Virus record (IMG/VR): IMGVR_UViG_3300044796_000401
Strand: one strand, 5' to 3'
Source: a virus
Taxonomy: Duplodnaviria > Caudoviricetes
DNA length: 64,000 bases
This document shows positions 21,923-37,600 of this stretch, one piece after another (the first letter of the stretch is position 1; every line of letters starts with the position of its first letter). The position numbers and the translations under genes are program-made. Under the pieces are notes generated by a model, which searched no databases, was not told the DNA's origin, and saw nothing but the letters and a program-made list of their open reading frames with translations.

Positions 21923-23496
21923 TACCTAGCTCCCCCGAACAAGGATTTCTGCCCCAGCCGCAGCCTGTGGACAGGGACTTCATGGATGCCCAGCTTGCCC
22001 CAGTCCACCTTCACAAAGGTCGTCTGCGGCGCTTTCTTGTCGGGCAGGATTTCCAGCACCTTGCCCCGAGCATCGGGATTCGCGTCGAACCACACGCTGT
22101 CCCCGACCCCGATGTCTTCGAGCTTGGCGGCGAACTGAAGGCGGCGCTGGGGCGAAATGCCGAGCAGGATGTTGGCGGTGACGGTGCTTTCGTGCCCCCC
22201 GTCCCAATGCACGGTGGCATAGTTCTTCCCGACCTTCTCCACGGTGCCTTTCAACTCCATGTCCGCGAGCCAGCGGACCCTCATGCCTTTCTTGGCGTCG
22301 CGATGCTCTATGGCGGTGCGGGCCTTGGCGAGCTTTCCCCTTTCCCGCCGCACCAAGTCCCGTATCGCCGACAGGTCCTCGTCTTCTTCCGGAGACAGGA
22401 TTTCCCCGGGCTCAAGGGAGGACTTTTTCCTCGTGACCCAGTTCTTGATCTTGTTCCAGACGTTGCGCAGCTTCTCCATGTACGCGGGCGACTTCTTGCC
22501 GGGCTCTTTTATCTGCTTCCAAAGCCTGCCCAGCATGTCGGACGCGGACTCTTCCTCCTCCGGCTCCTTTTCGGTCTCGTATGGAAGCCCGGTGTGGATG
22601 TGCGGCTCGCCCTCCTCGTGCCGCCTTTTCTCCTCCTGCTTCGTCAGGTCCTCGATGTCGATCTCTTTCTCCTCGGGCTCCGTGGCTGGCTCCTTTTCCG
22701 GGGCTTCCTCCGGGACCTCGAATTCCTCCGGCTCCGGCTCCAGCGCCGGTCCTTCCCGTTCGACCACATCTTCATCGACCTTGCCCGGTGCCTTGCTTTG
22801 GTCCGTTAGCTCCTGCTCGTGCAAGAGGCGGGCCTGCTCCCCGCCCTCCAGTTCCTTGAGCAGCTTGTCCCTGACCTTCTTGTCCTTGATCTTCCGGATT
22901 TTCTCCAGTTCGTACTTCCGGCGCATCTCGTCCTGCTTCTTCCTGAGGCGCTCCGGGGTCTTGCGTTCCTCGTCCTTGTGGCGCTGGATTTCCCGCTCGC
23001 GCAATATTTTCACGATGTTGTGCTGCACGGACGGCAGGATGCGCTCGAAGACCGAGTGGACGTGCTTGCAGATCACGTAGTTCGCCCGGAGGTCGAGGCG
23101 CTCGGTCGGGGCGACGAGCTTCGGGCGCGGCGTGCCGAGCAGCCCGTCCTGCTGGTGGAGGTTCCACTGCGCCCCCCAGTACAAAAATGCCGGGCACGAA
23201 CAACTGACCTGAACGTCGAGGTCCGCCGCCTTCTGGGACTCCTGCACCTTCGTCACGTCGAACTGGATGCGCACGTCGTGGCCGGCGGGGTCGCTGTCTT
23301 TCTTGTTGCATTTCACATTGTAGTGGAGGAACAGCGCCTTGGGATTTGAGTCCAGCAGCTTTGGCGTACAGCCGGGGCGATACTTGAGACTAAACGCATT
23401 TGTACTCCGGATAATTTCGGGTAGCGTAATGGCCGTTTTTACATGTGGGTGTTTGTCCGCCAAAACCACAGGAATTGTGATGAAAAAGCCGTCCAT
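21922..23496 (-). CDS. SWIM zinc-finger protein with acidic linker and two SH3/KOW-like C-terminal domains
   Basis: VSCSCPAFLYWG...ICKH (SWIM); GMRVRW..KGTV...VHWD and VGDSVWF..GKV...VDW (SH3-like). Confidence 0.7.
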   Translation of the reverse strand: MDGFFITIPVVLADKHPHVKTAITLPEIIRSTNAFSLKYRPGCTPKLLDSNPKALFLHYNVKCNKKDSDPAGHDVRIQFDVTKVQESQKAADLDVQVSCSCPAFLYWGAQWNLHQQDGLLGTPRPKLVAPTERLDLRANYVICKHVHSVFERILPSVQHNIVKILREREIQRHKDEERKTPERLRKKQDEMRRKYELEKIRKIKDKKVRDKLLKELEGGEQARLLHEQELTDQSKAPGKVDEDVVEREGPALEPEPEEFEVPEEAPEKEPATEPEEKEIDIEDLTKQEEKRRHEEGEPHIHTGLPYETEKEPEEEESASDMLGRLWKQIKEPGKKSPAYMEKLRNVWNKIKNWVTRKKSSLEPGEILSPEEDEDLSAIRDLVRRERGKLAKARTAIEHRDAKKGMRVRWLADMELKGTVEKVGKNYATVHWDGGHESTVTANILLGISPQRRLQFAAKLEDIGVGDSVWFDANPDARGKVLEILPDKKAPQTTFVKVDWGKLGIHEVPVHRLRLGQKSLFGGAR

Positions 23497-24233
23497 TAAG
23501 ACACCCGTCCCAGTTGCCAGCCCTGCTCTATATAGGCATTCAAAAGACTGGTGGGCACCATCATTGTCTCAGTTTCGCGATGAATCCACCTTTTTCCGTA
23601 GCTGGGGTTGCTTTCTCCTGATAAAGCCTTGCTCAAGTTTTGACAGTGAATCTCAGAGAACTCCAGCCCTTTATGCGCCTCGCTCAACTTGTGTCGATGC
23701 TCTTCTGAAAGTACCTTGCCTTGATGTGCATATCTGATTTTTTCGCGATGTTCTGCGGAAAGTTTCTTGCCTCGTTGGGCTTCCCCTATCTTACGTCGAG
23801 TCTCTTCACTACGTGGCTTGCCCCAATGGGGACTATTTGATCCTCGTTTCGAATCTCCGATGTGCCTGCAATGTTCCTCAGAAAGCTTTTTTCCAAGGCG
23901 AACTTCGCTCATTCTACGACGCGTTTCTTCAGTCACAAGAGACGCACCCTCACCGCCAAGCGTCATATTGTAGCCTTTTTCTGGTTCATGGGATTGGTGC
24001 GAAAGGATGAAATGAGTCTCCATTTTCGCCAATTCATCAACGTCCTTAGCGTGATAGATCACCTCTCGTGTGAACGCTTTGGGACCGTACTTACGAATGG
24101 CGCGGGCGAAATGGAATTGACCGCCTTGGTTAGCAGCGTTGCGATGCCATTTCCATCGTTTGGATAGCGAGGTCGTTGTCTTCCCGATATAGACTTTGCC
24201 GTTTATTTTGTTGGTGATCTTATAAATCAGCAC
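23496..24233 (-). CDS. GIY-YIG homing endonuclease with NUMOD3 repeats
   Basis: LIYKITNKINGKVYIGKT, GYNMTLGGEG and repeated SEEHR/SEETR motifs. Confidence 0.9.
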   Translation of the reverse strand: MLIYKITNKINGKVYIGKTTTSLSKRWKWHRNAANQGGQFHFARAIRKYGPKAFTREVIYHAKDVDELAKMETHFILSHQSHEPEKGYNMTLGGEGASLVTEETRRRMSEVRLGKKLSEEHCRHIGDSKRGSNSPHWGKPRSEETRRKIGEAQRGKKLSAEHREKIRYAHQGKVLSEEHRHKLSEAHKGLEFSEIHCQNLSKALSGESNPSYGKRWIHRETETMMVPTSLLNAYIEQGWQLGRVS

Positions 24234-24272: not shown

Positions 24273-24605
24273 TCAGAAGCTCCAAGGATTGGCGTTGCCT
24301 TCCCCGTAAAACACGATCTTGATTCGACTTAGGTCCCCGGCGTAGAGGCCCATCACGATGGCCCTGCGGATGACAGTCACCTTGCAGAATTTCCGGTACC
24401 CGGAAACCGTTCGGCTGCCCTTCACATTGTTGCAGCGGTTGCAGGCGGGAAGCAGATTATTATCGCGATTCTTCCCGCCGCGGGAGCGGGGAAGGGCATG
24501 GTCCACCGTGAGGTCGTCGGGATCGGGAAAATGCCCGCAGTACCAACAACGGCCGTCGCATTTGCTTGCGGTGTGAGCCCATTGGGTTTTCCGGGGAGTT
24601 CGCAT
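24273..24605 (-). CDS. HNH endonuclease (McrA-like)
   Basis: CWYCG..TVDHALPRSRGG..NLLPACNRCNNVKG motif. Confidence 0.9.
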   Translation of the reverse strand: MRTPRKTQWAHTASKCDGRCWYCGHFPDPDDLTVDHALPRSRGGKNRDNNLLPACNRCNNVKGSRTVSGYRKFCKVTVIRRAIVMGLYAGDLSRIKIVFYGEGNANPWSF

Positions 24606-25274: not shown

Positions 25275-26477
25275 TTAGATACTGAAATTGACCGTTTTGT
25301 CGGCTTTCTTCTTGGCGTGAAACGCTTTCAAGCTCTCGGAACGCTTGAGCTTGGTCGCTTCCGACTGTGTTTTGCCTTCAAGGGACCGGGATATTTTGTC
25401 ACGGGTTGCGGCGTCCCGTTCCTTGCCGTATGTCCAATGCTGTTCCCTACGCGGGCGGGCGGCATCAAGCGCAGCCACGGCGTTGGGATTAGCGGTGTAG
25501 AATTCCTTGTGCGACTCGGACATTTTTTCCTTCGTTTCCTCGGAATGAAATTTGCCGCCCATCGGTCCCAATGTTCCATACCATGGGTTGTTTTCACCAA
25601 GGCGGGCACCAGAATCCTTTAGTTTTTGCTTGGCTTCCTCGGACCAATTCCAATGCTTGCCTTTGGCGAGACCTTGATGTACCGGATGTTCGGGGGGTTT
25701 AGGAATACCAGTCAATTTCTTGCGGATTTTGCCTTTGGTCTTCTCGTCCCGTTCCTTGCCGTGCAGCCAGTGTTCTTCGCCGCGCGGCATATAAGAATAA
25801 GCATTGTCACCTTTGGCTTTTTCTTCTTCGTGACGCTGCGTTGTTTTCTTCCTGATAGCTCTGCGTGACTCTTTGGTATGGAATTGCGCCCTACCTATCT
25901 GGTATCCCTGTTCAAGATAGGCGGGAACTTCCTTGGTTGGCACACGGTAAGACTCAGAACCCCTGAAGACCCATTGCCGGGGAGGGGCGGTCTGCGTCCA
26001 ACCCGAATCCAAATAGCGTTGAAGCTGGTTTGCGGGAATGATGGTGCGGGAACTCTTTCCTTTGTAGACGTGCAGCCATCCGTCGATGGAATCCAGCTTC
26101 GCGCACATTCTTGCAAACGCACTAGATATTTCCCGCAGCAAAGCTTCGTCATATCCGCTTTGAGCAAGCAGATTGAAACGACTGTGACTGCACATCTTGA
26201 GGAAAGACAAATAAGCGACGGGATGTTTGGGCAGCGCCCGATACAGATAGTAGTGGGCGACAAGGTGGTCGGCGGGAGACAAAGGCTTGCAATTCCATGG
26301 ATGCTTCTTTAAGGAGACGAATTCGGGAAACATGGCACGGGGCAAAATGTGATGGTGGTGGCAGCGGCCCATTGAGGGGTGTTCTCGCGGCGACAGAGCT
26401 TGTTCGATGAACGTCAAATAAACGTCCGTCCAAATCGGATCAGGGAATAGGGATAACAGTTGTTCTCGTATGTCCAT
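25275..26477 (-). CDS. HNH-type homing endonuclease with NUMOD3 repeats
   Basis: HHHILPR..FPEF...LSPADHLVAHYYL, then ENNPWYG and HSEETKEKMSESH motifs. Confidence 0.8.
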   Translation of the reverse strand: MDIREQLLSLFPDPIWTDVYLTFIEQALSPREHPSMGRCHHHHILPRAMFPEFVSLKKHPWNCKPLSPADHLVAHYYLYRALPKHPVAYLSFLKMCSHSRFNLLAQSGYDEALLREISSAFARMCAKLDSIDGWLHVYKGKSSRTIIPANQLQRYLDSGWTQTAPPRQWVFRGSESYRVPTKEVPAYLEQGYQIGRAQFHTKESRRAIRKKTTQRHEEEKAKGDNAYSYMPRGEEHWLHGKERDEKTKGKIRKKLTGIPKPPEHPVHQGLAKGKHWNWSEEAKQKLKDSGARLGENNPWYGTLGPMGGKFHSEETKEKMSESHKEFYTANPNAVAALDAARPRREQHWTYGKERDAATRDKISRSLEGKTQSEATKLKRSESLKAFHAKKKADKTVNFSI

Positions 26478-26631: not shown

Positions 26632-27591
26632 TTAGTTTTCCCCGACGTTGGCAGTCGAAGCGTAGCGTCCGTTGACGTGAAGCGCCTGAATGCCACTTGG
26701 GTTGAAGACGAGGAAGCCGAGGTTTTCAAATATGCTAAATCCTATTTGACGAAGGTCCGGACGATCCGCCGACATGACTGTCAGAGGAATACGTTCGGGG
26801 ATCACACCGAGGAACTCGGCGTCCGCCAGGATGTAGATCGAGCCGTAGCCGACCTTACGGGACTGGAGGAGCGTTGCGCCCCAGAGATAGCCCATGACAC
26901 CTGTCTTGAGCAGCTTGCGCTGAGTTTCCCTGTCGATGTTCTGTTGGGTCCACTTCAACAGGTCCGTGTAGTCGCGGGGGTTGAAGAAGACGAATGCCAC
27001 CGAGAGGTCGTGGCGCTGCACCTGCCCAAAACCGTCTGCCATCGAGTTGATGTCGATGGGGGCGTTGATGGCGATGCTCACGTTGTAAACCGGGTCGTTG
27101 GCCGACTTTGCGTTGGCGGCGGTAGCCACGGCGTCAAAGAGCCCGAAGACGTATCCGTCTTCCTGCGCGCCAACTTCGGCCTTAGCCAAGTTGAGCGAGC
27201 GGGCGACGAGATCGAACCTGCGTTCCTTGATCTGGGTGATCGGAATCATCGGGTTGGAGACGATTTCGAAGGTGGGAACAGTGACACGCTTCGGCTTGGT
27301 GACGCGGACGATGTCCCCGCCCTCTTCGCCGACGACGAATGCTTCCACGAAGGACGAGCCCGGCGTTGAGCCGACCGTCATCGCGGAAGTGTCAAATTCC
27401 TTGTCGTAGATGGGCAATGCGCCATCCGGCAGCGTTTCGACCATGAGCGCCTTGCGGGCGATACTCATGTAGTCGCGACGGCGACGGAGGGAAGGACCGA
27501 GAGAAGCAGCGAGCTTCTGGCGGCCGCCAGCGGTCTTGAGAAGCTGACCGAGCATTGCGGTTTGCTGTTGTGTGCGAGATAGATTAGCCAT
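26632..27591 (-). CDS. Major capsid protein (HK97 fold inferred; Bxz1/E3-like family)
   Basis: Size of 319 aa and position after protease and scaffold with a strong terminator. GRQKLAASL...RRDY.SIARKALMVETLPDG..PIYD...VTVPTFEIVSNP...QED parallels, from memory, the Bxz1-type MCP. Confidence 0.85.
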   Translation of the reverse strand: MANLSRTQQQTAMLGQLLKTAGGRQKLAASLGPSLRRRRDYMSIARKALMVETLPDGALPIYDKEFDTSAMTVGSTPGSSFVEAFVVGEEGGDIVRVTKPKRVTVPTFEIVSNPMIPITQIKERRFDLVARSLNLAKAEVGAQEDGYVFGLFDAVATAANAKSANDPVYNVSIAINAPIDINSMADGFGQVQRHDLSVAFVFFNPRDYTDLLKWTQQNIDRETQRKLLKTGVMGYLWGATLLQSRKVGYGSIYILADAEFLGVIPERIPLTVMSADRPDLRQIGFSIFENLGFLVFNPSGIQALHVNGRYASTANVGEN

Positions 27592-27611: not shown

Positions 27612-28431
27612 TTAGAGCAAGCTCGCAACGCCGAGCCAAGGCTCGCCGCTGGTTGGAACGTGGGTGCAAATGCCGACGGGAACTGCGACACCTGTGCCGC
27701 CGTCATTGCTACCCTCGGAGTCGGTGATGGAAACGTACAATCCAGCGCGCTTGGCAGTGCTGCCACCGCAATAGACGTACGATCCAACTGCGAAGTTGGT
27801 GGTGGTTCCGCCATAGGCTTGAGAGTCCACGTTGCCTTGCCACAGGGCGCGGACAACAGGGGCTTTCTTGGAACCGGATGGGCCGATGGCTCCAGCAAAT
27901 TCGCCGGGACCATTGAGTAGGGTTGCGAACGGGACATGGCCAACGGTGCTTGCAGCAGCACGGTCACAGGGGACGATGTTGCCGATAGTACCGAATGCAG
28001 GCTCATTAGCGGTCTGGATCACATAGGTGGCACCGTTGCCTGAGTACCCAGTTACGGTAGAGGTCAAGGCAACGATTGTGCCGCCAAGATAGCCAGCGGT
28101 TGTGAGGCTCTGTTGGTCGGTTCCCGGATCGCCAGAGAGCGCGATGGCAGGCGTAACGTTCACGCTGTCATTTTGCCCGTAATCATTTTGAGGGGCATTT
28201 GTTACCAGCGTTGCTGGGACAGGTCATTTCTGCCTATCTCTCACGGTTTTTATTCCCGTAATGTTCGGACTATCGCATCACCCGGTCTGGGTGCCCTCTC
28301 ACTTAGTCTCTCAGGCTGCCTTTCGGCTTGCCCCTTGTTGGCGTTTCAGCGTTCAAGTCAATCAGAGAAGGTTGTTTTCCCTTGGATTCCGCCAAGGAGA
28401 CCCATTACGTTTAGGTCAGTTTTAGTGACAT
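27612..28431 (-). CDS. Capsid decoration/cement-like protein, split by a group I intron (exon1 28431-28413, exon2 28183-27612; 196 aa spliced)
   Basis: Spliced product MSLKLT-Y-YGQNDSVNVTP... is in frame (591 nt). Small Gly/Ala/Thr-rich protein directly upstream of the MCP, ending PWLGVASLL. Confidence 0.75.
28184..28412 (-). ncRNA. Group I self-splicing intron, 229 nt, no internal ORF
   Basis: P1 GACCU|..GGGUC with U-G wobble at the 5' splice site; P10 CGUAAU/AUUACG; P2 CCUUGG/CCAAGG; P3 CCUUCUC/GAGAGGG; P6a GCC-GAAA-GGC; P7 GACUA/UAGUC; P8 CACCC/GGGUG; P9 hairpins; terminal G. Confidence 0.9.
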
Positions 28432-28611
28432 ATTGGTTGGTTTCTCCAGTTAAAGTTGAAACTTGAACGTTTAATTTGCCCCTCCAATCCGGCCTCTTTT
28501 GGGAGAGGGTAGGACTATAGAAGAACACGTTCAATGAAGGATTGAGAAAAATCATTTTTCTCAAAACTAACGATTTTGTCGTTTTGGCACTTTTTGGGGT
28601 ATTATATAGAT

Positions 28612-29523
28612 ATGCAAATAGATAGCCACCTCAAAGGGGTCTTGCAGGCCAAAGTCCCAGACACGGATTTCACAAGATATTTTGGTTTTCTCGAATCTTG
28701 CTCGTGCGATGAGCATGGCGAACGTCATCACATATTGCCGAAGACGGAATTTCCGGAGTATAAAACCCATCCGAGCAACATTGTCCGGATTTCTGTTGCC
28801 AGCCATCTCTATGCCCACTATTGGCTGGCCGTCTGCGCCCCCGATTGCAGAGCATTCCAAAGGGCCTTTTTTCTGATGGCGAGAGTGGATCACACGGATA
28901 TTAATGCAAGTTCCTTGCCCGAATATGCTGCGGTTCTGAAGCGGGGGAGGCTGGCCCAGAAACAGCCATGGACGCGGCAGCGCCGAAGACGGCAATCCGG
29001 CATCGCAACGAAAGTAAATGCGGTCGAGAACTCAAAACTCCGGGATCGAAAATGCCTGTACTGCGGACAAGAATTCAAGCGGGTTACCAAGGGGGAATTC
29101 GGCGGCCATCGCCGCTTCTGCCTGCATTACAAAGACAAGGAAGTTTCTGTCCGTCCGTTTGTTGTCTTGACGAGTATGAAGGTCAAGCGATGCGGCAAGT
29201 GCGGCAAGGAAAAGTTGTTGGACGCTTTCAATGTAGAACGCAAAGCACGGCTTGGCCGGGCGAATTATTGCCGAGACTGCGCCCACGAGCACCGCAAGAC
29301 CCCCAGTGCATCACAACTGCATGATTTCGTGTGCCCGGATTGCGGTCGAGACTTCAAGCAGGTAAAGCCGGGCGTTTATGGCGGACATCGGCGAAGCTGT
29401 TTGAATTACGGCGCTAGGCGGCAAGAATTTGAGTCTTGGAGTGGTTCTGCCCAAGAATTCGCAAACACGCATAGCCTGCCGTTGCAGACTGTACGGCGCT
29501 GGGAAAACAGCCCCCTCAACTAG
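28612..29523 (+). CDS. HNH-type endonuclease with C-terminal zinc-finger repeats
   Basis: HHILPKTEFPEY...SHLYAHYWL; two C..CG..F......GGHRR.C fingers. The N-terminus is paralogous to 51342-52171. Confidence 0.75.
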   Translation: MQIDSHLKGVLQAKVPDTDFTRYFGFLESCSCDEHGERHHILPKTEFPEYKTHPSNIVRISVASHLYAHYWLAVCAPDCRAFQRAFFLMARVDHTDINASSLPEYAAVLKRGRLAQKQPWTRQRRRRQSGIATKVNAVENSKLRDRKCLYCGQEFKRVTKGEFGGHRRFCLHYKDKEVSVRPFVVLTSMKVKRCGKCGKEKLLDAFNVERKARLGRANYCRDCAHEHRKTPSASQLHDFVCPDCGRDFKQVKPGVYGGHRRSCLNYGARRQEFESWSGSAQEFANTHSLPLQTVRRWENSPLN

Positions 29524-34647: not shown

Positions 34648-37600
34648 CTACCTCTGGGCGTGCCAATCCTGGGGAATCCGGTTCCCCTTGCTGGCAAAAT
34701 ATTCATTCGCATAGTCTTGCCCAATTTCCTTCCATAGTTCCTCGGGGGTGCTATGACTTTCAGCGGCAAGCTGTTGTATATAGCCTTCCTTCAGAAACGC
34801 CTGCCGGGCCTCATCCTCGTCCGTCTGCGCCTTGCTGGCGAAGTCCTCAGACGCCGGTCTGTCCTGATGCTCTCGGTCGTAATGGTCGGCCTTCCTCAAC
34901 AGGGCGGCCTTTGGTTTTTTCATCGTTTCACTCGCTATGAGCGGCATGCCCGGCACCGTTTGCTGCATGAGCAAGGATTCCGGGTCGCCGTTGATGTTCG
35001 GATCGAACTGCCTATGCAATGGCTTCGAACGCGGAGGCTCGGCGTTGAGGGGCTGCTTCACCCCGTCCATGACGCCTTCCATGACATCCCTTTCGGCTTC
35101 CACATCGACGTGCTTGCGGAACTGTTCGCGAGGCGGCTTGAATTTCGGGGCGTCGTGGAACTCCACGGCGGCCCTCTTGCCGCCGATGTAAGACTCGATC
35201 TGTCCCGGCGCGAGGTTGAGTTGCTCCCGCAGCAACTCGATCTTCTGCTGCATCGGGCGGGCGGACTTGGCGAACCATCCCGTATCCTCTGTGGTGCCGA
35301 GCTTGTGCAGCGCCCATTTCATGGGATGGAAATCTATGCTCATCGCCAAGGAGGCGGACTTGAGGGCGGATTCCCGGTCCTCGACTCCGACCGCTATCCG
35401 CGCTTCCTCAACGACTGATTCTTCTTCCTGAGCGGCGGCTTTCTGCTCTTCTTCGTCCTCTTCGGGGTCCGGCACTGGCTGGTTGGGCGTGCCGCCGAGC
35501 GGAGCGCCCGCGCCGTAGAACTCCGTACCGGCGCTTGCCGGATTGTCCAAGGGCACATCCATCCCGTAGGCTTTCGTGGAGGCCGTCTTCTCTTCCCGCA
35601 GAGCGTCTAGGAATTCGTCTTTTTCCCCGGTCAGCAATTGCAACGCCTCTTTCGAGGATGTTTTTTGGGGCGGCTTGTGCAAGATATCCCAAAGGGTCTC
35701 ATACTCTTTTTCATATGTTTTTCCCTTGAGCAAATCACGGGGAAATTGGTTGTTCCTGATTAGTGTCTGGGCATCCACCTTGTCTTTTTGACGGCTTTGC
35801 GGCAGCCCCATGTCCACGCCGCCGAAGAAGCCGCCAATTTTCATGTCAATCAATGTCGCCGCATCGCAATACACGGGGGTCGTGTTGACGCTCGCCGGGG
35901 TGGGGAGGGGAACTTTATTGAACCCCGCTTTTCGCCCCTCTTGCATCGGTTGTATGAGTTCGCTGTTTTCCGGGTCCAGCAGATGTTCTTCGTCTTCGTC
36001 CGCCTGATAGCCGTTCTTGATGAGTACGAACCAAGCCTTTTTGGCGTCGGATACCGAAAGGTCGATGTCAAGCGTATTGCGGGCATACCCGTATTCTTGG
36101 AGCGCCACGCCGCCGATCACCAGCGACCCTATTCCGCTTTCCCCCAGTATTTTCACGGCCTTTTTCAGGGCTTGTTCTTTGTTTCCTGAGGCTTTTCGTA
36201 TCGCCACAGCCTCTTTGTGGTTGTAGCCGGGATCGCTTACCTTGGCGATGCGATTGACCAGCTTGTTTTGTTGTTCGGGGGCGAGTTGATTCCACGAAGC
36301 GTGAAACGGGAAATTCCAGTCCAAAGACGCCTTCATCCAGCCCACCCGGTTGTCAATGTTAAGCTGATTCCACTGAGCAGCAATTTTAGGAATGCTTTCC
36401 CGCTCGGTTTCATTCACAAAATTCTTGCTGAGTACGGCTCCGGTCTTCCGTTCCTTTCGGGCCTCCTCTTCCTGTTCGTCCTTCTCATCATCCGAATCCC
36501 ACTCGGAGCAGCAGGCGTCGCCGACCACGTGCGTTCTCCAGAACGAGCACCAAAGCCCACGTCCCTCAGGATCGGAAGCTTTGGCTTCTGCCCCGTACTC
36601 GCAACGCTTGCACCCGAATCCGCCCTCGTGCTCGCCATACTTCGCCTCTTCCTTGGTGAACTTCTCATCCATCGAGGGAGCGGTCTCGGGCTTGATCCCG
36701 AGGTGGTACAGGCGGCAACCGCCCGTGTCGAAGCTGATCGGCCCTTCGACGCGCATGCAATCTGATTCATCCCTCCTCATATCGCAATCCCGGCATAAAT
36801 ACAGCCCTTTAGGATCGTACGGTTTGATATCCGCGGTGTTGTCCTTTTCCTCGGCGTACTGTGCCCACTGCTTCATCTCCTCGCGGACGTGCGCCTCGTG
36901 CTCGAAGTCGTATTCGCCGGGATCGGGCGCGTTGGCGTGGGCTTGCTTTTCCAAAACGCTTCCTCTTTTTGCGAAATCCGCGTCCGACCGACCGATTTCT
37001 TCACGCACAGCCTCCGGCGTGAGCAAAGACTCTTTCAACGCCAATGTGCCGTGCGTGGCCGGGCTGTTGAACCAAACCATATTCTCCATCGTGCCCGCAT
37101 ACAGGCCCCCGCCTTCCGCCACGATTTGTTTGTACCGTTCCTCTTTCTCCGTAGTGCCCTTGGGGTCTTTTTTCTCCCCCCCGTCAACAGCCCCCACGCT
37201 CGGGAGACCGAATCGCACACGAGCATCGTTAAGGCGCTCACGCACCTTTTCGTCACTAAACTCGTTCACAAACAAACCAAACTGGGTACCGCTGACCGGA
37301 TCGTTGTAGATGATGTACTGATTGTCAGCCGTGCCGGGAGTCTTGGTCGCGCCCTTGTAGTCCACGCCGTACCTTTCAGCGGCGGCGCGAAACGGCGTCT
37401 CATCAATGTCACTCACGACTTTCTTGGCGATGCGAGCCGGACGTTCCACGGATGCCCTGACCATCTCGTATTCCGGCAGGCTTCTCTTGAAGAACTCGTG
37501 CTCTTCCCTCTCCACCTCGACCGGACGCATGGCGGGGTCGCTTTCCTTGAAGAACGCGGCGTCTTCCTTGCCCTCGGGCGGCTCCAATTTGGGATGGGGC

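Follow-up and report, generated by a model that had tools for sequence, protein, structure and literature searches.

The window analysed here, a stretch of 64,000 nucleotides, carries on its minus strand a decoration-like gene that is read in two exons and lies directly upstream of the gene for the major head protein (Table 1). We consider there to be little doubt that the 229 nt separating these exons are indeed a group I intron, compact and without an ORF, at the 5' end of a decoration (cement)-like gene; the huge phage that carries it is a relative of the Tunturiibacter phage Tunturi_5. Exon 1 is preceded, at a distance of 145 nt, by a divergent endonuclease gene, and four homing-endonuclease-like genes are found within 6 kb around the head genes.

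Table 1. Features of the interrupted gene, its intron and their surroundings (window coordinates).
Feature	Position	Strand	Basis
GIY-YIG + NUMOD3 gene	23496-24233	-	
HNH gene	24273-24605	-	
HNH-like + NUMOD3 gene	25275-26477	-	
Major head protein gene, immediately downstream	26632-27591	-	phrog_2522, E 1e-42
Exon 2 of decoration-like gene, AT TAC GGG ... to stop	27612-28183	-	homologs, ORF list
ORF-less group I intron, 229 nt	28184-28412	-	sequence, folding, RNA contig, covariation
Peripheral 3' domain	28185-28261	-	P9 and P9a covary; folding
P9b	28205-28217	-	drawn
P9a, conserved GCAGAAAUGAC loop region	28218-28238	-	covariation
P9	28241-28261	-	covariation
Catalytic core	28267-28371	-	RNAalifold covariation, P7 pair counts
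P8	28279-28293	-	core
P7	28310-28304 / 28272-28267	-	bulged A, invariant G-C guanosine-site pair
P5, P6 and P6a	28313-28333	-	core
P4	28357-28354 / 28337-28334	-	core
P3	28371-28365 / 28300-28294	-	core
P2 hairpin, UCCUUGG / CCAAGGG	28379-28398	-	in site-A introns (window, L002, L281)
Internal guide CGUAAU-GGGUC, 11 nt	28399-28409	-	sequence; P10 change in L281; P1 in family
Exon 1 of decoration-like gene, ATG TCA CTA AAA CTG ACC T	28413-28431	-	sequence, homologs, RNA contig
Free-standing HNH-like (HHILP-type) homing endonuclease gene, divergent	28576-29523	+	phrog_655, phrog_12434

Exon 1 (19 nt) encodes MSLKLT and the first base of a tyrosine codon (codon 7), and its last base is U. The minus strand runs ...GGAGAAACCAACCAAT ATG TCA CTA AAA CTG ACC T up to the intron start, AAACGTAATGGGTCTCC, and at the other boundary CCCCTCAAAATG is followed by AT TAC GGG CAA AAT GAC AGC GTG AAC, which stays in frame as far as the stop at 27612. 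The intron RNA accordingly has AAACGUAAUGGGUC at its 5' end and AAAAUG at its 3' end, with the terminal G at 28184. Deletion of 28184-28412 joins ATG..ACC T to AT TAC GGG and yields the N-terminus MSLKLTYYGQNDSVN; the spliced coding sequence of 591 nt specifies 196 amino acids with the N-terminus MSLKLTYYGQNDSVNVTPA. In unspliced RNA, the first intron bases complete an in-frame TAA (ACC TAA), which leaves a peptide of six amino acids. The initial annotation had proposed these coordinates, exon sequences and short peptide, all of which we confirmed in the sequence. A GGAG Shine-Dalgarno sequence at 28447-28444 precedes ATG 28431 and is conserved in relatives. GTG 28163, the sole start offered for exon 2 in the ORF list, lacks an upstream Shine-Dalgarno sequence in the window; we reject it as the true start and regard it as a gene-caller artefact of the intron.

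Further upstream, some 60-90 nt before the ATG, lie a conserved TCTATAGTC motif and, after it, a GC-rich segment resembling a hairpin (28466-28520, minus strand). The pair occurs in the same place in L002, L003, L010 and L282, with and without an intron, and in a looser version in Tunturi_5; the arrangement resembles that of a late promoter together with a leader structure.

Comparison with relatives supports the junction. The exon 2 product (P0001) has 329 relatives, and we read the N-termini of the 120 that were listed. About 85% of these start with MSLKLTYYGQNDSVN or with a variant that differs by one or two residues, and this is, residue for residue, the N-terminus predicted for the spliced product. 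The initial annotation had suggested looking for intron-less homologs with such a start. In the only cultured relative, Tunturi_5, a 309-kb phage from soil, gp333 begins MLKLVNYGQNE without an insert and is encoded directly before the major head gene, in the same gene order as in the window. Across viral contigs that carry the gene, it is uninterrupted in 55 of 61. The aberrant N-termini among the listed proteins are the MN.TPA starts, MDKD and MINNKED (these two before YGQND), and ..GLG and ..TTL (each before YYGQND), and they are what a gene caller yields on meeting an insert: the D in front of YGQND comes from the insert's terminal G, translated jointly with AT. The window's own protein cluster, P0003, has the MNVTPA start that results from GTG 28163. 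The initial annotation had allowed that homologs might begin at the equivalent of this GTG. We did not find this pattern, and the few MN.TPA starts trace to intron-bearing alleles in both cases checked (the window and L283).

The host protein matched nothing in Pfam or PHROGs. An AlphaFold2 model built from 42 homologs (mean pLDDT 71) returned nothing significant in Foldseek searches of the PDB and BFVD (E>=0.39), and re-scoring with VIA-align gave middling Z values of 5.5-7.4 to 10 chains, all from phage capsid structures (XM1, Sf11, FCWL1, HFTV1, Pam3, T1, Pa193, E217, Patience and TW1). These chains appear to be small auxiliary (decoration or cement) subunits of the capsid. The predicted fold of the host protein thus resembles phage capsid decoration proteins weakly but consistently, and the label 'decoration-like' seems reasonable if provisional. 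The Tunturi_5 ortholog, gp333 (L001:2983-3480), is annotated as a 'tail fiber protein'. This label is probably wrong, given the position of the gene before the major head gene and the matches to decoration-protein folds.

Evidence at the RNA level comes from a peat metatranscriptome (X1), in the form of contigs assembled as a k = 31 unitig graph from an RNA library, which can contain DNA. Of the sampled words of the region, 85% were present. One contig of 306 nt, without a mismatch to the window, joins 27907-28182 to 28412-28441; it skips 229 nt, and with one ambiguous base this equals the removal of 28184-28412. Its short side measures 30 nt, just below the 31-nt rule, because unitigs overlap by k-1. 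A second contig (28239-28441) has the intron attached to exon 1 and ends short of the unspliced 3' junction, and a third (28412-28619) holds the shared upstream part. This branch pattern is the one expected of coexisting spliced and unspliced molecules. Three other runs (X2, X7 and X10) contained short pieces of the intron core or a close relative only, at 90-99% identity, and were set aside as evidence on expression or habitat. The relative in X10, a run of unrecorded type, is a contig of 12,665 nt (record 7) and differs from the window at 6 positions over 679 nt of exon 2 and the start of the head gene. Its intron keeps the core at 28302-28366, and the 5' and 3' peripheral parts are replaced by other sequence, which suggests that the intron periphery may turn over rapidly between near-identical phages.

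These observations have to be weighed against the idea that the 229 nt stay in the RNA, that the gene starts at GTG 28163 downstream of a structured 5' leader or regulatory RNA, and that the joined contig derives from a co-occurring intron-less strain. Gene callers do choose this GTG, as the P0003 cluster illustrates, the RNA evidence is at contig level with a short side of 30 nt, and Rfam offers no match. However, the Shine-Dalgarno sequence is found before ATG 28431 and not before the GTG, and the 19 nt of exon 1 joined to exon 2 reproduce the N-terminus of the family exactly. Moreover, the joined contig matches the exons at 100% identity over its entire length, whereas the nearest intron-less homologs share ~81-83% identity with the window at the protein level, which counts against such a strain as its source, and the full group I core described below covaries. 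We therefore regard retention of the segment as a leader as most improbable.

The predicted fold of the intron has the hallmarks of a group I ribozyme. Within the internal guide, CGUAAU pairs with AUUACG of the 3' exon to form a P10 of 6 bp, and GGGUC pairs with GACCU of the 5' exon to form a P1 of 5 bp with the U.G at the splice site; the P10 strand is followed by the P1 strand, as in the canonical order. The P2 hairpin that follows is missing from most members of the family. A tail of 20 nt separates P9b from the terminal G. The initial annotation had judged P1 with its U-G wobble, the 6-bp P10, P2, P3, P6a, P7, P8 and P9 to be pairable; all of these can be drawn, as can P4, P6, P9a and P9b, and most covary in relatives. 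The minimum free energy of the intron has a z-score of -2.27, and none of 200 dinucleotide shuffles folds as well. Together with the MSLKLTYYGQNDSVN N-terminus in most homologs and the RNA contig that has the exact junction, this places the junction beyond chance. Some details depart from the common pattern: P5 consists of just 2 invariant pairs, and J3/4, at 7 nt, is atypical. The spacing from P7 to P3' is 3 nt (AAG/U) in 64 of 64 related sequences, which leaves no P7.1/P7.2 and shows that the element is not of the IA1/IA2 type. A group II intron and an intein were considered as well, and both are ruled out by size, boundaries and structure.

To follow these helices across the family, we aligned 64 non-redundant related elements from viral contigs, the window included. 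RNAalifold recovers P3, P4, P5, P6, P6a, P8, P9 and P9a from this alignment, with compensatory double changes in 32 of its 38 pairs. P7 forms a pseudoknot with P3 that is outside the reach of RNAalifold, and its pairs were tallied by themselves. Below the bulge, the pair is GC in 42 sequences and AU in 22, the distal pair is AU in 61 and GC in 3, and in none is either broken. The G-C pair that we take as the guanosine-binding site is invariant (64/64), and the bulge beside the covarying pair is A or C. A base in J8/7 tracks a pair in P4 in all 64 sequences (CG with A in 43, UA with G in 21). A group I base triple would be expected to give this pattern, to which shared ancestry may contribute, as two sub-lineages could yield the same result. 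In 37 of 42 members located in different host genes, the GGNNNNN segment immediately 5' of the J region pairs over 7 contiguous nt with upstream exon sequence ending in U, forming P1 (shuffled controls average ~5). In L281, exon 2 carries a synonymous C->U change (TAC to TAT) and the P10 strand of the guide a compensating G->A change.

The covariance model of Rfam was less informative. The initial annotation had looked to Infernal with RF00028 for confirmation, and the model returned no match at the gathering threshold or at E<=10: Rfam 15 matched no family over the whole window at gathering threshold, and a search of 28100-28500 at E<=10 gave only chance miRNA and snoRNA rows. RF00028 likewise matched none of about 14 relatives in 12 loci. 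We read the missing match as a limit of the model and not of the element, whose group I status is left intact because the defining features were tested directly and found. In the related loci the sole match to RF00028 is to a different group I intron (L064:680-898, minus strand, 74.9 bits), which sits ~260 nt from a family member invisible to Rfam (L064:209-416) on the same strand.

The structural data also bear on whether the intron acts on its own. It could be degenerate, having lost self-splicing and depending on a phage or host protein as cofactor, and the very short P5, the unclear subgroup and the lack of a match to RF00028 might be read in this way; there is also precedent in the Bastillevirinae, where 4 of 8 validated introns are reported to have spliced only in infected cells (PMC11878797). 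Against this, the core helices and the guanosine-site pair are all intact and conserved across the 64 relatives, and there are many GNRA loops, typical of compact introns that fold by themselves. Dependence on a cofactor is thus unlikely, if less so than retention as a leader. Splicing is probably autocatalytic and would follow the classical guanosine-initiated two-step transesterification: by analogy with group I chemistry, guanosine would attack at the U.G of P1, the terminal G would then dock, and P10 would guide ligation of the exons. The in-frame TAA at the boundary of exon 1 may assist: ribosomes would leave the RNA after the sixth codon, and folding of the ribozyme could then proceed. 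In-frame stops have been proposed to permit such folding in messages that are being translated (PMC3984707), in T4 introns among others.

The same decoration-like gene is interrupted by related introns in other phages, at three sites within 11 nt. Introns at the window's site (site A, after nt 19) are found in L002/L283 and L281. Others lie 1 nt upstream (after nt 18, between ACT and TAT) in L003:1250-1500 and L282:~1820-2036, and after nt 8 (between CT and T AAA) in L010:1230-1500 and in L012, L015 and L017. Each has U...G boundaries and restores MSLKLTYYGQND, the splice sites in these relatives being deduced from the conserved protein together with the U...G rule. The intron at each insertion site carries its own guide sequence; site-B introns are without P2, and the P2 of L010 is different.

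Endonuclease genes recur beside these introns. Of 6 distinct lineages that bear an intron, 5 have a divergent gene of this kind upstream, compared with 17 of 55 intron-less loci. Orthologs of the HHILP-type gene of the window accompany the introns of L002/L283 and L010 and none of the 55 intron-less loci, making the enzyme encoded at 28576-29523 a candidate trans-acting mobility partner of the intron. In L003 and L281 a GIY-YIG gene occupies the same place, and such a gene also stands beside the 17 intron-less alleles; in L282 the intron is present and an adjacent endonuclease gene is absent. The pairing of endonuclease and intron, seen here as gene adjacency, fits collaborative homing (PMC3984707, PMC6083498). 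As in the systems described under that name, an ORF-less intron is found with a free-standing endonuclease gene beside the interrupted gene. The present case differs in that two endonuclease families are involved (HHILP-type HNH and GIY-YIG), that the GIY-YIG gene is commoner beside intron-less alleles, and that one intron lineage has no neighbouring endonuclease.

The intron would then be a selfish passenger, close to neutral in its effect on phenotype, that disrupts the target of the enzyme and is spread or retained through endonucleases encoded in trans, of which that at 28576-29523 is the likeliest. It is tempting to go further and to view the first seven codons as a contested hot spot, in which related ORF-less introns at nt 8, 18 and 19, most of them with a divergent HNH or GIY-YIG gene, provide immunity against endonucleases through collaborative homing and reach new sites by ectopic insertion near the break, all of them, each with its own guide, belonging to a large compact group I family that Rfam does not detect and that is widespread among virion genes in huge phages from the environment. 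We offer this wider scenario tentatively and consider it possible but rather doubtful.

An alternative to a selfish passenger is that the intron has been recruited as a regulator, with splicing efficiency tuning the amount of decoration protein relative to the major head protein. Its location, at the extreme 5' end of the gene that immediately precedes the major head gene, would suit such a role, as would the fact that unspliced RNA gives only the six-residue peptide and the presence of both spliced and intron-containing contigs in the RNA library. Nevertheless, the 55 of 61 viral loci and ~85% of the 120 listed proteins without an intron indicate that the gene works without one, many unrelated genes host the same intron family, contig depths cannot measure splicing efficiency, and selfish spread is what the linkage with endonuclease genes suggests. 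We therefore find a regulatory role very unlikely, and the suggestion in the initial annotation that splicing sets the ratio of decoration to major capsid protein is pure speculation.

Classical phage group I introns include that of Twort orf142. The introns of T4 td, nrdB and nrdD, of SPO1 and of the Bastillevirinae (PMC11878797) share with the intron of the window the P1-P10 architecture and the terminal G. Further parallels with classical phage introns are the in-frame stop just inside the intron (PMC3984707) and a related core in the ribonucleotide reductase gene of phage CRP-118. Unlike the T4 and SPO1 introns, for which IA1/IA2 is typical, the intron of the window is without P7.1/P7.2, has no endonuclease ORF and goes undetected by RF00028. 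Other counterparts come from the Cluster J mycobacteriophages, in which group I introns have been described in the major capsid gene of LittleE and in a minor tail gene of BAKA and Optimus (265 bp, ORF-less), and a group I intron in the capsid gene of Tuc2009 has been published as well (PMC3706429). Like the present element, the Cluster J introns are small, lie in structural genes, follow an exon ending in U and end in G, and were found against intron-less relatives with splicing shown at the RNA level; the BAKA intron similarly has no ORF, and the genomes carry many free-standing HNH endonuclease genes (PMC3706429). The likeness is one of description. Here the interrupted gene is decoration-like and belongs to a huge phage that has an Acidobacteria phage as a relative, only 19 nt of coding sequence precede the intron, and a metatranscriptome contig takes the place of their RT-PCR as evidence from RNA.

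The initial annotation considered an ORF-less intron at codon 7 of a head gene unusual. This was overstated: introns in capsid and tail genes, including the ORF-less one of 265 bp, are already published (PMC3706429), so the present intron adds to a known kind, and broad surveys keep finding more phage group I introns (PMC11878797). It leaves our understanding of how group I introns work unchanged. What it does provide is a clean, RNA-supported case from a huge phage of soil or peat, in a head gene that is expressed at a high level. It also has a practical consequence for annotation, given that the gene of the window is mis-called and shortened to the GTG start in a public protein cluster and that Rfam gives no warning. 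Of greater interest are the size of the Rfam-invisible family, the three sites within 11 nt and the repeated occurrence of introns alongside two endonuclease families. The three insertion sites, the two endonuclease families and the alleles that have or lack each component form a natural series in which the movement of ORF-less introns and the immunity they may confer could be tested.

Beyond the decoration-like gene, the related family comprises introns of ~200-230 nt in many genes of environmental phages. An 18-nt motif spanning P4-P5 and a 17-nt motif in P7 are each present in at least 119 viral contigs; within the 64-kb window, scanning for the motif with <=3 mismatches allowed found no copies other than this intron. 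The blind spot in annotation extends to related introns in viral contigs, well over a hundred of them, and to at least one cultured phage, Roseobacter phage CRP-118. In this genome (L280:1480-1880; OR420741.1, ~35056-35455) an element with the same P1/P3/P4/P7 core splits the gene for ribonucleotide reductase, a classical host gene of group I introns. The enzyme is annotated as two CDS (gp44 and gp45) with the unannotated element between them. Rfam gave no match to this element at E<=1; judged by its core, it is probably an unrecognised group I intron. Among the IMG/VR loci L063-L247, which include L122:7750-8126, L140:3349-5998, L143:7689-8166 and L067:1297-3284, several contigs have two or three family members within a few hundred bases of one another, implying that single genes hold tandem introns.
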